A DNA stretch of 64,000 nt from an uncultured Pseudomonadales bacterium (GCA_964620965.1 CAZUHV010000003.1:12777-76776); one strand, 5' to 3'; shown: positions 57,755 through 62,200, numbered from the stretch's first letter. Made by a program: numbers and translations. Notes: a model not told the origin generated them from the letters alone.

Positions 57755-60700
57755 GTGAGCGAACTAAAATCAAAAGGACTAGCAAGAAATTATCTTCAAA
57801 TAAAAAAACTTGATTCTAGTGTAAACATAAACACATACTATCAAGAAATAAAATACTTCCTTTTTGGTACAAGTGATTCTACTCCTATAGATATCAATAA
57901 CCTTCCAAAAGGAGGTATTAATGAATTCTTTACAAATGGATCTTTTATACCTACAGAAACCTCTTCTGTCAGACTAACTGTATCTGGTGAATCTGCAGCT
58001 TTGTATAAAATTCCAAACCTTAAAAATGCTGAGTTTGTTAGGACTTTAAATCCAACAGCTGACCCCTCAACCAAAAGAAACCCTGCCGAATATTTTTTTC
58101 CTAGCGATTTTGTTGCAATTTTAGTTGAACTTGCTCAAATATTTTATAAAAGTGGTTACAATGTTACAGGTCTAAAAGACTATGCTTTCACAAATCCTCA
58201 AGAATTTATTAAAAATTGGGGAAACCCTAATTCTGATGAATTTTTAAGAGCCGCCAGTGATGAAAAAGGCATCCCATTCTTTTATGAACTTTCATTTGAC
58301 AGCCACAAATCAGACCTTCAAAACTTACTAAACCAAGTTAATGAAGCGGCTCAACAGTTTGAAAACAAAAAAGAAAAACCAGATCTTTCGGAATTTTTAG
58401 TACAAACTGAAGTTGAAAACCTTATATTAAAAGACTTTTCAAAACAAGCATTTACTCTCTTTATAGAAAAAACTCCAGAATACTTAAAAAAAACAGCTGA
58501 ATATGAAGAAAAAATAAAGCCAATTCTTGAGGCAGATGAAAACAAGATTAAAAACTCTGTTGAAGAAATTCAAGAAAAAAGTGAAGAGAAAATCGAAAAA
58601 CTAGTTTCACAAACAAAATCTGACTTTTTTAGAGATTTGTTTGGAAAACAAGAAACCTTAGATAAGTTCAGAGATCTTGGAAATTTTGATCCAGATTCAA
58701 AATATTTTCTTTTTGAAACACGGACACAACCTCTTCAAGTAGGTATAAAAGAAACAGAAATTTACAAGGATTTTATAAAAGTTTCTCTTGAAACATTCTT
58801 AGAAAAGAATCATGAAGAACTTCTAAAAGAATTTATACTTCCACTATTTAAAACAGAAGAAACTGAACCTGAACCTTCTCCGGAAACTAAAGATGAAGGT
58901 GGTGAAGCAATAGTCGAGGAAATTAAATTTGATAGTCCAATCGATGAAGAGACTTTCAAGAAAAAAATTTTAGAAGACGTCACAAAAGCCCTTATCAAAA
59001 AATTTGATGAAGAATTTTGTCCTCAATACAAACAGAACTTCTTAGAAAAAAAAGACAAACTTGCTGGAAACTACCTGGAAGAAGTTACTAAAGAGCTCCA
59101 TAAACAAGTTCAAGAAAAAGTTGTTGGGAATCTTGAAATTGGCGAAGAGGATTTACAAAAACTCACCGAAAATCCAGAAAAGATTTTATATTCTGAAGGA
59201 AACTTTAATCCTGAAATTTTAGAATCAGAATGGTACCAAGAATTAATACAACAAAGCATTGATTATATAGAAGGGCTTCCTTCTCCTGATTCATCATATT
59301 CAAGCTACTTTTCATATTTGTTTGAAACTCATATTCAACCTTTCCTAACAGAAATTGAACAAAAAGAAAAACCAGAAGAACCTCCACAACCTACCCAAGC
59401 AGAACCAGAAGATTTTACTAGTGGCGTTATTCCTCCTGTAATTCCAGTCTCTACTGATACTTCTCCAACCAAGACCATAGAAACTCAGTCAGAACAAATA
59501 AACACCCTCACTCAAGAACAAATTAAAACCTTACAATACGAATCTGCATGGATGTATAACCGTGCTGTGTACGAGCTGTACACCTCAAAAGGTGTAAAAA
59601 TCGAAGATATTCCTCAAGATGAACTTAATAACTTACAATCTAGCATTTTTTCATACCTTTCAGGAATGCAGTCAACTGAAGGAAGCGACTTTAATAAACT
59701 TTTTGGTAGTGCTTCAGCTCGTCAAAAAGCACTCATGGAGTTTTATACAAAAAACTCTACATTTATCACACAAATTAACGGTGGACTTATTTCTAAGTTT
59801 ATTGACGCCGAAGCATTACTTTCTGTTGGAATCAAAGATTCTATAAAACTTGATAGTAAAGTTCTTACAGATAATATAAAAAACACTGTTGATAGCTTAA
59901 TTGTCCAATATGGACTCAATCAAGATTTTTATGCAATAGATACAACATCAGATCCAAATAACATAAAAGTTCAAAAATTTTCTGGAGATAATCCCCACGA
60001 TATTATTTGGTTTTTAGATTCTATTCCTCCAGAAAGATTAGCTCTTATTTTTAATATCCCTCCAGGTGTATTAAAAAATGAAGACATAATAAAACAACTG
60101 AGAGAAGTTTTAAAATCATACGCCAGATATAGAGGAAGTGAACTTTCTCTTCATATACAAAATACAACCTTACAAAAAGGTTTAACCGTAATTAGTGCCG
60201 AAGACGCAGAAAAAATAAAAAATGGTGATGAAAAAACAATTACCAAGCATTTAAGTTTTACAAATGATATTAGAAGTATGACTAAAGCCAATGGAGGCGA
60301 AGTCGTTGTTGGAGCGTTGGATCATAAATCTGGTGAAACAGACCCTAAAAGATCTGGTCATAAAAAAGAAATTCAAAAACAATTTAAAACGTTTCTCCCT
60401 TTATGGGGACAACTTACAGGACTTGAACAAGCAGAAGTTTATAAAAATTTTGGTCTTGCGATTCCTGCTGAATATTTAACTAATGGAAAACCAGATAAAA
60501 AAAAGCTTGAAGTAGCTCAATTAGAGTTTATTCAAGAATTTATATTCTTTGATGTAAGTAAACTTGGCAATATTAAACAAATAATTAAAAGAAAAAATGC
60601 AGATGAAGCATTGCAATTAAAACTCCTAGAAATTGCTGAAATACAAAATCAGCTTGTAAGAGAAAGAGAGTTAGCAAAACTTTTAAATGCTGAATTCTAT

Positions 60701-62200
60701 ATCTACTCTGACCCATCAGAACTTCAAGAGATAGGAGAATATGTAGGCGTTGACACCAATGAACTGTCTTTTAGAGAAAAATATTATGCAGATGATGAAA
60801 TTCAAAGCGGTGGTTCAGATGAATATGAAGTTCAAGAAGTTGGACCTGGTCGAAGAGGACTTGTTCCAAGATTTCTAGATACAAGTGCAGGAAAAAGACT
60901 AAAAGAAAGATTCGGAAGAAGATTTAAAAAGAAATATAGCGCTCAAAAAAAAGCTGAAAAAGCATTTGCTAAAGCCGCAGGGGCTGCACTTACAAAAGTT
61001 GCTGCTGCTTCACTAAACGCTATACCAGGTGTTGGAACTGCACTTAGTGCTGCACTATTAGCCATAAAAAATAAAAAAGTTAGAGAGTTTGTTTCAGGTT
61101 TAGTTGCTTTAACACTTGGTGCAATTATCGGAAGAACTATCTGGGCTCTAGGAAGTATTGGAGGAGCAATAGGAGGGCTCATTGGTGGAGCTGTTGGATT
61201 TGTTGTTTCTGGTGGAGCAATGGTTGTTCCGGGAGTAGTTATTGGAGCAAATATAGGAGAAGCCATTATTCCAACAAGAATTGTTGGATCAAGTAGCCCT
61301 ATTTTTGGTAACACAAATAATAATCAAGGCTACTCTGCAGAAGCTACCAGAATTACCCAAACTGCAGCCACACAAAACATACTTGTGTCATACGGAGGAG
61401 TCGCAATTATTGCTGCCGGAGGATTTGCTCTAACTTCAGTTTTTATTACTATCTTTACTATCTTCACCATCTACAGTGCATTTCTTATTCCAATTCCTAT
61501 TGATCGACCAACCGTTGGTATTGGAGACGGTGGACCTCCAATTGGAGGAATCGGAGCTGACAGTTGTGATGACCCTACTCCACTTTCAGATAAAATCACA
61601 AAGAATACTACTTCTCCTATTGCTGGGCGAGCTTATGATATTGTAAATAAATTATTACCCGGTTTTTGGTGTTACTGGAACTGGAACCCAGACTATGACG
61701 GACTGAATGATACCTTTACTGGACCTGCTTCAGAAAGCCCAGATTTATTTAACGAAGTCGAGTTTGATAGATACCCATATCACTGTGTGTACAGCAACAG
61801 TTTTCCTGCTGGTTGTGAAGGTGACTACAGAGCTATGAATGGAAACGCACTGTATTGGTGTACTTGGTTAGTAAATCACTCATATCAAAATAACTATAGC
61901 CTCGCTGCAAGAATCATGGCGGATCAGTTTAGAACTCTACCTGGTCACATTTTTATGCCTGTTGAATCGATAAAATACACAGATCTTCAACCAGGAGATG
62001 TCATTTTTACTTCTACAGAAGGCAGAAACGGAAATATTGGGCACGTTGCAGTCCTTCATGATGTTGGCCCAGACTATATTAGAAGTATTGACTCTAATGC
62101 ATCTGCCAGATACCACAGTTTCACTGTTAATACAGATGGCTCTATTCAAGCAGACTCAATCCCATATTTAGGAGTTGTTGGTTTTGGAAGAAGATTATAA
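57755..62200 (+). CDS. Giant membrane protein (1481 aa) with C-terminal CHAP-domain peptidoglycan hydrolase; T4SS-associated cell-wall hydrolase analogous to VirB1/PrgK/TraG
   Basis: The N-terminal region of about 1080 aa has no recognised family. It is followed by Gly-rich TM segments (...GAIIGRTIWALGSIGGAIGGLIGGAVGFVVSGG... and ...VFITIFTIFTIYSAFLIPIPI). The C-terminal CHAP-like domain has Cys in NALYWCTWLVNHS and His in GNIGHVAVLHD. Confidence 0.65.
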   Translation: MSELKSKGLARNYLQIKKLDSSVNINTYYQEIKYFLFGTSDSTPIDINNLPKGGINEFFTNGSFIPTETSSVRLTVSGESAALYKIPNLKNAEFVRTLNPTADPSTKRNPAEYFFPSDFVAILVELAQIFYKSGYNVTGLKDYAFTNPQEFIKNWGNPNSDEFLRAASDEKGIPFFYELSFDSHKSDLQNLLNQVNEAAQQFENKKEKPDLSEFLVQTEVENLILKDFSKQAFTLFIEKTPEYLKKTAEYEEKIKPILEADENKIKNSVEEIQEKSEEKIEKLVSQTKSDFFRDLFGKQETLDKFRDLGNFDPDSKYFLFETRTQPLQVGIKETEIYKDFIKVSLETFLEKNHEELLKEFILPLFKTEETEPEPSPETKDEGGEAIVEEIKFDSPIDEETFKKKILEDVTKALIKKFDEEFCPQYKQNFLEKKDKLAGNYLEEVTKELHKQVQEKVVGNLEIGEEDLQKLTENPEKILYSEGNFNPEILESEWYQELIQQSIDYIEGLPSPDSSYSSYFSYLFETHIQPFLTEIEQKEKPEEPPQPTQAEPEDFTSGVIPPVIPVSTDTSPTKTIETQSEQINTLTQEQIKTLQYESAWMYNRAVYELYTSKGVKIEDIPQDELNNLQSSIFSYLSGMQSTEGSDFNKLFGSASARQKALMEFYTKNSTFITQINGGLISKFIDAEALLSVGIKDSIKLDSKVLTDNIKNTVDSLIVQYGLNQDFYAIDTTSDPNNIKVQKFSGDNPHDIIWFLDSIPPERLALIFNIPPGVLKNEDIIKQLREVLKSYARYRGSELSLHIQNTTLQKGLTVISAEDAEKIKNGDEKTITKHLSFTNDIRSMTKANGGEVVVGALDHKSGETDPKRSGHKKEIQKQFKTFLPLWGQLTGLEQAEVYKNFGLAIPAEYLTNGKPDKKKLEVAQLEFIQEFIFFDVSKLGNIKQIIKRKNADEALQLKLLEIAEIQNQLVRERELAKLLNAEFYIYSDPSELQEIGEYVGVDTNELSFREKYYADDEIQSGGSDEYEVQEVGPGRRGLVPRFLDTSAGKRLKERFGRRFKKKYSAQKKAEKAFAKAAGAALTKVAAASLNAIPGVGTALSAALLAIKNKKVREFVSGLVALTLGAIIGRTIWALGSIGGAIGGLIGGAVGFVVSGGAMVVPGVVIGANIGEAIIPTRIVGSSSPIFGNTNNNQGYSAEATRITQTAATQNILVSYGGVAIIAAGGFALTSVFITIFTIFTIYSAFLIPIPIDRPTVGIGDGGPPIGGIGADSCDDPTPLSDKITKNTTSPIAGRAYDIVNKLLPGFWCYWNWNPDYDGLNDTFTGPASESPDLFNEVEFDRYPYHCVYSNSFPAGCEGDYRAMNGNALYWCTWLVNHSYQNNYSLAARIMADQFRTLPGHIFMPVESIKYTDLQPGDVIFTSTEGRNGNIGHVAVLHDVGPDYIRSIDSNASARYHSFTVNTDGSIQADSIPYLGVVGFGRRL

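Follow-up and report, generated by a model that had tools for sequence, protein, structure and literature searches.

What does a giant, apparently membrane-bound protein with a peptidase-like C-terminus do beside the genes of a type IV secretion system (T4SS)? This question is raised by the gene studied here, hereafter the target, which lies near the 3' end of a window of 64,000 nucleotides (nt), the whole stretch of DNA that was analysed (CAZUHV010000003.1:12777-76776 of assembly GCA_964620965.1). Analyses of the protein, its relatives and their loci indicated, with a probability that we put at roughly 0.7, that the target encodes a T4SS-dedicated, membrane-embedded peptidoglycan hydrolase of an ultra-small bacterium of the Patescibacteria, an analogue of VirB1, PrgK, TraG and CwlT built on a lineage-specific chassis and carrying an exchangeable head with a cognate partner. 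Such a protein is of a known kind, a T4SS wall hydrolase in a known Patescibacteria T4SS, and is distinct by its orphan cytoplasmic core, its polytopic Gly-zipper anchor and its recombining head-plus-partner module.

The first-pass annotation had described a 1481-amino-acid (aa) protein with a Lys/Glu-rich N-terminal region devoid of recognisable domains, followed by Gly-zipper transmembrane segments and a C-terminal CHAP domain with readable catalytic motifs, and each of these elements was recovered. The open reading frame (ORF) with its GTG start was confirmed, and a protein search over public assemblies returned a public protein of equal length, P0001, 98% identical to the target. The full-length query gave two matches only in the word-indexed protein search, while searches of the same type with the core alignment and with the tail alone were empty and missed even P0001, and are thus uninformative. 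Residues 1-1074 contain 11.3% Glu and 10.1% Lys and had no significant match among the Pfam, NCBIfam, PHROG and PDB sequence entries. The Gly-zipper stretch quoted in that annotation falls inside the sole hydrophobic block of the protein (residues 1086-1250, by hydropathy), and the motifs YWCTWLV and GHVAVLHD occupy residues 1367-1373 and 1429-1436.

The whole protein scored 22.6 bits against PF05257 (E=1.6e-4; the gathering score of 26 was not reached), and the tail alone scored 26.7 bits (E=7.9e-6) with model positions 2-81 of 81 covered. Five relatives carry the same tail, which is 52-70% identical to that of the target, and CHAP was matched by five of the six tails of this type at E<=1e-3 (best E=1e-6). 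All six tails keep Cys1369, His1430, Asp1446 and Asn1448 without exception, together with four additional Cys that suggest two disulfides. Profile-profile alignment (hhalign) of the tail with five CHAP domains, those of PrgK from pCF10 and of four phage tail lysins or endolysins, gave E=0.001 over 89 columns. Cys1369 of the target was aligned on the invariant Cys of CTWY, His1430 of GHVA on the invariant His of the reference GHVA, and IDSN on ISE.N, which places Asp1446-Ser-Asn1448 on the reference Glu-x-Asn; the distance between Cys and His is 61 residues in the target and 62 in PrgK. The CHAP call thus held at the sequence level, the match being marginal yet reproducible in homologues and the Cys, His and Asp-Asn lying on active-site positions, and this weak but consistent signal points to a divergent CHAP-like domain. 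In a search of the single tail against PDB sequences the best match was an NlpC/P60 protein (E=0.57), and in tblastn the tail matched no phage genome.

An exhaustive HMMER search of 1.84 billion protein cluster representatives, made with a profile of residues 1-1120, returned only 35 relatives, all of the same build and nearly all of them 1150-1770 aa long. What the family shares runs from the core (~586-1035) through the basic juxtamembrane segment to the membrane block. The heads are CHAP-like in six members, M23 with a NAGPA-like domain in ten, M23 alone in nine and HExxH metallopeptidase-like in eight (one of these with NAGPA); one member has another type of head and three are fragments. 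M23 is present in 19/36 members, with a best Pfam E=1.1e-19 and a best match to an M23 peptidase in PDB at E=5e-16. The HExxH motif is invariant in the heads named after it, the best match of their tail profile against PDB sequences being the CapP metallopeptidase (E=0.19). Pfam detected an SLT or muramidase domain in none of the 36 members, target included, and, outside the heads, no known toxin-trafficking or pre-toxin domain (LXG, Rhs, PT-TG and similar). DUF6861 was matched by two members, of which a precomputed Pfam list names P0013, with a weak match.

A NAGPA-like (phosphodiester glycosidase) domain follows the M23 or HExxH head in many relatives (14186-14833 in locus L001, with equivalents in loci L008, L010, L012 and L014). 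One may speculate that this domain cuts the GlcNAc-1-phosphate linkage of wall polymers to peptidoglycan, which, if true, would suggest hosts with walls of the Gram-positive or actinobacterial kind.

The phylogenetic tree of the core (neighbour-joining, 408 columns, 100 bootstraps) showed that the head types are polyphyletic. Unlike heads were found in four pairs of sisters with 100% bootstrap support, namely P0002 (M23+NAGPA) and P0003 (CHAP), whose cores are ~82% identical, P0010 (M23+NAGPA) and P0012 (CHAP), P0013 (M23+NAGPA) and P0015 (HExxH), and P0017 (HExxH) and P0023 (M23). The window protein clustered with P0004 (CHAP) and P0005 (HExxH) at a bootstrap of 98%. The class of the downstream gene follows the class of the peptidase in 14/14 loci, and the three classes of this partner are mutually unrelated: proteins of 231-236 aa with a Big_5 domain, found downstream of CHAP-type heads only, proteins of 313-354 aa beside M23 heads and proteins of 190-209 aa beside HExxH heads. 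Partners of all classes have an N-terminal membrane anchor, and in several loci the start codon of the partner overlaps the stop codon of the target homologue. Since the hybrid HExxH+NAGPA member has a partner of the HExxH type and the M23-only members have partners of the M23 type, the partner follows the peptidase and not the NAGPA-like domain.

The 5' boundary of the exchange is sharp. The 30 nt coding for ..QSAFLIPVP show ~70% nucleotide identity between loci with unlike heads, and directly after them identity is 29%, that of random sequence. Alignment of P0002 with P0003 revealed 78-94% identity in the core and noise right past the last membrane helix; similarity returns where the PrgI-like gene begins (80/83 residues). 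The sharp loss of identity after QSAFLIPVP and its recovery at the PrgI-like gene therefore define the exchanged unit as head plus partner, with conserved sequence on both sides. Near-invariance across the whole family is limited to three residues, namely P560 and, within the junction motif, F1243 and P1248; this motif might also be a hinge or processing site. A tblastn search with all tail and partner classes found no orphan tail or partner cassettes in the window or in 13 related loci beyond the canonical copies.

The target, its partner and the PrgI-like gene lie on one strand with gaps of 17-45 nt. In the loci of the relatives the next genes are a TraC-like gene, the VirB4 ATPase gene, dnaA, dnaN, rnpA and yidC, and the order target, partner, PrgI-like, TraC-like, VirB4, dnaA, dnaN is kept in every related locus with enough flank, even for members that are only ~20% identical to the target. 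The frame of a T4SS hydrolase, implicit in the first-pass annotation, is borne out by the PrgI/VirB3-like gene and by the order that runs on to TraC-like, VirB4 and dnaA in 13 related loci. The 390-aa PrgI-like translations differ by few substitutions between the window, the P0002 locus and locus L003, and one relative comes from a metagenome-assembled genome labelled Patescibacteria. The locus is a chromosomal, Gram-positive-type T4SS, similar to the mating pair formation class MPF-FATA, of Patescibacteria (candidate phyla radiation). Patescibacteria T4SS of this type are described as lying near dnaA, with pilin arrays and no relaxase (PMC12102498), and the T4SS is reported to be essential for epibiotic growth of Southlakia epibionticum (PMC10633639). 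The pilin genes of the window fit the arrays reported for Patescibacteria; the member at 41425-42057, the only one scanned, gave a weak PF18895 match.

The N-terminal region is composed of parts that evolve at very different rates. Residues 1-540 are ~38% identical (22-48%) in the pair with the ~82% identical core, so that the N-terminal half evolves ~5x faster than the core, with islands of conservation remaining; in P0002/P0003 this half gave no blastn match although both flanks match. The first ~540 aa are alignable in the closer members only and are absent or unalignable in the distant ones. The net charge of residues 1-1035 of the target is -57. The core 586-1035 is an orphan, without a Pfam, PDB or PHROG match even when the family profile was used, and the full protein gave only spurious, myoglobin-level matches among PDB sequences. 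The orphan core of ~450 aa, predicted to be cytoplasmic, and a Gly-zipper membrane module without known relatives make the protein a candidate new T4SS component. In the target gene, three trivial short tandem repeats were the only internal repeats found.

No signal peptide was detected, and 19-aa windows in residues 1-1074 never exceed a mean Kyte-Doolittle value of 1.3. The membrane block starts with a hairpin-like segment, H1, with a central PGVG, followed by a basic loop (KNKKVRE), a Gly-zipper stretch of 62 aa (GRTIWALGSIGGAIGGLIGGAVG...), a variable Ala/Thr-rich loop and a last hydrophobic stretch of 42 aa; it is identical (0 differences) in the 98%-identical homologue. Across the family the pre-membrane segment is strongly basic (median of 10.5 Lys plus Arg against 2 Asp plus Glu), as is, to some degree, the first loop, and acidic residues prevail past the last helix. 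Because of these three features a topology with the N-terminus in and the C-terminus out is predicted, the basic segment 1036-1074 being taken as cytoplasmic by the positive-inside rule. Hydropathy and the distribution of Cys fit the same topology: family-wide, Cys makes up 1.85% of the tails and 0.025% of the rest of the protein (10 Cys in ~40,000 residues of the N-terminal and membrane parts in the family alignment), and in the window secreted proteins contain 2-5.6% Cys and cytoplasmic ones ~0.3-1%. The number of helices would be three or five, plus the hairpin, and either charge-respecting option would place the head outside.

PHROG 11489 (function unknown, 1717-position profile) matched residues 1022-1153 of P0002, equivalent to about 60860-61250 of the window, at E=0.004. 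Six family members matched this PHROG (best E=3.9e-6), and the P0002 match, to the basic segment and Gly-zipper block, may be compositional.

Table 1. Features of the target gene and its T4SS neighbourhood (coordinates refer to the window)
Feature	Residues	Position	Strand	Remarks
Promoter-like site TGGAAA-18-TATAAT		57719..57748	+	consensus match only; best of the 55-64 kb region
Target ORF	1-1481	57755..62200	+	1481 aa, GTG start; T4SS-cluster membrane protein with CHAP-like head
N-terminal half	1-540	57755..59374	+	fast-evolving, Glu/Lys-rich; predicted helical (low confidence)
Pro-rich linker	541-585	59375..59509	+	holds P560
Conserved core	586-1035	59510..60859	+	family-defining; motifs LQYESAWMYNRAVYEL, YGLNQDFYA, SELSLHIQN..ISAEDAEKIKNGD
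Basic juxtamembrane segment	1036-1074	60860..60976	+	net charge +11
Polytopic membrane block	1075-1249	60977..61501	+	predicted from hydropathy
Junction YSAFLIPIP	1240-1248	61472..61498	+	family consensus QSAFLIPVP; 5' boundary of exchangeable module
CHAP-like head	1291-1481	61625..62197	+	Pfam match covers 1362-1448 (window 61838-62098)
Candidate catalytic Cys	1369	61859-61861	+	
Candidate catalytic His	1430	62042-62044	+	
Candidate catalytic Asp	1446	62090-62092	+	
Candidate catalytic Asn	1448	62096-62098	+	
Cognate partner gene		62218..62922	+	234 aa; N-terminal membrane anchor, Big_5 Ig-like domain (residues 43-119), C-terminal domain
PrgI/VirB3-like T4SS gene		62967..64000	+	runs past the window end
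Eight tandem VirB2-like pilin paralogues		40673-44347	+	124-210 aa; common motif W-x-TSGGD-x-GK...ARNKIT

Domain content, aligned catalytic residues, gene order, the small size of the family and head swapping with full co-variation of the partner are observed, whereas topology, enzymatic activity, a tie to T4SS function, the role of the partner and docking of the core are deduced. From these data the following mechanism is proposed. The N-terminal part of ~1070 aa would stay in the cytoplasm, where its core would dock on the T4SS platform, and the Gly-zipper block of about five membrane helices would act as anchor. The C-terminal ~230 aa would form a CHAP-type cysteine peptidase or amidase (Cys1369-His1430-Asp1446/Asn1448) on the outer side of the membrane, stabilised by disulfides and cutting stem peptides of peptidoglycan locally so that the T4SS channel and the VirB2-like pilus could pass the wall. 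Head and next gene, the latter encoding a membrane-anchored extracytoplasmic protein, would form a two-part exchangeable module. Because the M23 or HExxH heads of the relatives each bring their own class of partner, specific binding of the partner to the head is most likely, either as an inhibitor or immunity protein or as a positioning factor. PMC10633639 and PMC12102498 describe a Patescibacteria T4SS without relaxase that is essential for epibiotic growth in one tested lineage and whose substrate and mode of action are unknown. A repeatedly exchanged head and partner on a giant membrane protein resident in the cluster offers a testable handle on how the channel or pilus passes through the wall of the producer or of its host.

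The proposed hydrolase was compared with the known T4SS wall hydrolases. In Gram-positive VirB1-like hydrolases an intracellular part is followed by a membrane anchor and by hydrolase domains on the outside (PMC12857230), a plan that the target is predicted to share with the PrgK/TraG class. PrgK (pCF10), TraG (pIP501), CwlT (ICEBs1) and Orf14 (Tn916) are, like the target, encoded in a T4SS cluster beside VirB3-like and VirB4 genes, and the CHAP motifs of PrgK and the target are alike (CTW[YL]V, GHVA and [ED]xN at near-equal spacing). The earlier suggestion that the protein is built differently from PrgK and TraG was also upheld. The cytoplasmic part would be ~1070 aa long in the target, without detectable homology to PrgK, versus ~240 aa in PrgK, and the anchor is predicted to be polytopic and rich in Gly-zippers, whereas it is single-pass in the PrgK/TraG class. 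The target lacks a glycosidase domain, its exchangeable head comes with a downstream gene specific to the head class, unlike in the PrgK/TraG class, and its gene lies upstream of the VirB3-like gene while those of the PrgK/TraG class lie downstream of VirB4. Homology of the family to the non-catalytic part of PrgK was considered and rejected (hhalign of the family profile against PrgK, probability 1.3%).

The locus resembles the Patescibacteria T4SS of PMC12102498 and of Wang et al. 2023 (PMC10633639), where PrgI-like, TrsD/TraC-like and VirB4 genes lie by dnaA/dnaN together with a VirB2-like pilin array, a relaxase is absent nearby and the VirD4-like gene is remote. For one class, the survey of Quinonero-Coronel et al. 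2025 (PMC12102498) lists VirB1-like matches close to virB4, M23 being present in some of them. The giant family, its orphan core, the exchange of heads and the cognate partners are not described in the consulted sections of PMC12102498 and PMC10633639.

Several observations weigh against a T4SS-dedicated wall hydrolase. The CHAP-like domain is very divergent and scores only marginally, and the tail profile matched no solved structure among PDB sequences. The fold is unconfirmed, since AlphaFold of the tail as a single sequence gave an unusable model (predicted local distance difference test, pLDDT, of 33.7), and the fold and topology of the remainder are likewise unconfirmed (residues 1-1120, two-row alignment, pLDDT of 35.5, unusable). 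VirB4 itself lies beyond the end of the window, and the shared lineage and conserved gene order of all relatives make it possible that the synteny signal partly reflects shared descent. The target has one peptidase head and no SLT or muramidase domain, whereas PrgK, TraG and CwlT have a glycosidase domain, and a regulatory, not a catalytic, role is reported for the PrgK CHAP domain (PMC12857230). Finally, frequent exchange of heads would be unexpected of an enzyme that only opens its own, chemically stable wall.

The last point leads to a reading that refines the one preferred here and that we consider possible, if rather doubtful. The head would be a polymorphic lytic peptidase aimed at the wall of the epibiont's host, heads being swapped to match wall chemistry, and the partner would be an immunity protein. 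A variable substrate, the host wall, together with a controlling or neutralising partner would account more easily for the repeated exchange of heads, always with the partner. Non-homologous heads in four pairs of fully supported sisters, the co-variation of partner and peptidase classes, the sharp junction with conserved DNA on both sides and the overlapping start and stop codons all agree with it, as do the predicted membrane anchoring of the partner in the compartment of the head and the essential role in epibiotic growth of a cultivated relative's T4SS that lacks a relaxase (PMC10633639; PMC12102498).

The same organisation is known from polymorphic toxin systems (Tae-Tai of type VI secretion, LXG of type VII secretion, X-Tfe/X-Tfi of the Xanthomonas T4SS), which combine a conserved body with non-homologous C-terminal tails, a downstream gene that co-varies with the tail and a sharp junction after a conserved motif. 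Wall-degrading tails are common in polymorphic toxin and effector-immunity systems. Unlike polymorphic toxins, the target family has no known trafficking domain (Pfam) and no array of orphan cassettes in the window and the 13 loci, and its body is polytopic and not secreted: the head would be tethered to a polytopic anchor in the membrane of the producer, and no release site is known. The lineage, moreover, has no known host, and the function of the partner is only presumed. We regard as tentative that the head-plus-partner module is a host-range determinant of the epibiont, swapped by recombination between the QSAFLIPVP junction and the 5' end of the PrgI-like gene, with the partner as immunity protein or inhibitor. 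If true, this would place polymorphic effector-immunity logic inside a structural part of a T4SS essential for the epibiotic lifestyle. The exchange of heads bears on possible determinants of host specificity.

Three further readings are less likely than a T4SS-dedicated wall hydrolase. It appears improbable that the protein is a general wall-remodelling or division hydrolase under transmembrane control, similar to FtsEX-PcsB, CwlO or RipC, that merely neighbours the T4SS genes near oriC and works outside the T4SS machine. All loci do adjoin dnaA in a region rich in housekeeping genes, and the combination of peptidase heads, membrane module and large cytoplasmic part resembles hydrolases controlled from the cytoplasm, as the wall hydrolases of FtsEX systems are. 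The gene is, however, always found within the run of the T4SS cluster, with conserved proteins on one side and PrgI-like on the other, on the same strand and with short gaps. A core division function would not be expected in so tiny a family (35 clusters in 1.84 billion), head swapping is unexpected of a housekeeping enzyme, and Pfam revealed no ATPase or FtsX-like domain in the target.

That the CHAP-like head is catalytically inert, with a binding or regulatory role only, has the precedent reported for the PrgK CHAP domain (PMC12857230) and would agree with the marginal score of so divergent a domain. It is nevertheless unlikely, given that Cys, His and Asp-x-Asn are invariant in six tails though the tails of the relatives are only 52-70% identical to that of the target, and that the substitute peptidases of the relatives keep metal-binding or catalytic motifs (M23 at a Pfam E=1e-19, and the invariant HExxH).

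A tape-measure-like protein, threaded through the T4SS or pilus, inserted in the target envelope and digesting the wall, is suggested by the long, mostly helical prediction (low confidence), the Gly-zipper block and lytic head, the near absence of Cys from both the N-terminal part and the membrane block, the similarity of the relatives' M23 heads to M23 domains that lie within phage tape-measure families, and the PHROG 11489 matches, but it is highly improbable, since all tape-measure matches are confined to the M23 domain, residues 1-1075 have no phage-family (PHROG) match, viral contigs contain no relatives, the context is a chromosomal T4SS and not a tail module, and the positive-inside pattern suits a resident membrane protein. 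Phage tape-measure proteins share with the target a very long helical chain, hydrophobic Gly-rich segments and a terminal or embedded M23- or CHAP-type wall hydrolase, and Pb2 of T5 is a tape-measure protein with a lytic domain; homology to them was rejected, every match being to M23 alone.

With respect to expression of the target, the -10 box of the sigma-70-like site ends 6 nt before the GTG and no obvious Shine-Dalgarno sequence was seen; the transcript may be leaderless. Sigma-70-like sites are scarcer in this region than in its shuffles.

Further genes of the window were inspected. Between the pilin array and the target, positions 49248-57711 hold four conserved proteins (555 aa, +; 1004 aa, -; 402 aa, -; 740 aa, +), which had no significant Pfam match and have homologues of similar size and in the same order in most related T4SS loci; the polytopic 555-aa protein could be a VirB6-like component. 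A 1173-aa protein with 2% Cys and a signal-peptide-like N-terminus is encoded at 44406-47927 (+) and is syntenic in related loci. A lytic-transglycosylase-like Glu motif was noticed by eye in its C-terminal LALAMWGEESGFSHY and was unsupported by Pfam or by the search of PDB sequences; if the motif is real, this protein would be the glycosidase partner that the CHAP protein lacks. A separate protein of 402 aa (27979-29187, +) ends in a T4SS_pilin domain (PF18895, E=1e-7). In the distal upstream part of the window a VirD4-like coupling ATPase (9125-11458, -; DUF87, TrwB_AAD_bind) is found alongside ordinary chromosomal genes, ~45 kb off the T4SS core, as reported in other Patescibacteria. Two large and very Cys-rich predicted surface proteins are encoded at 370-5161 (+); one (683 aa, 2.8% Cys) has DUF11 repeats, and the other is 854 aa long with 5.6% Cys.

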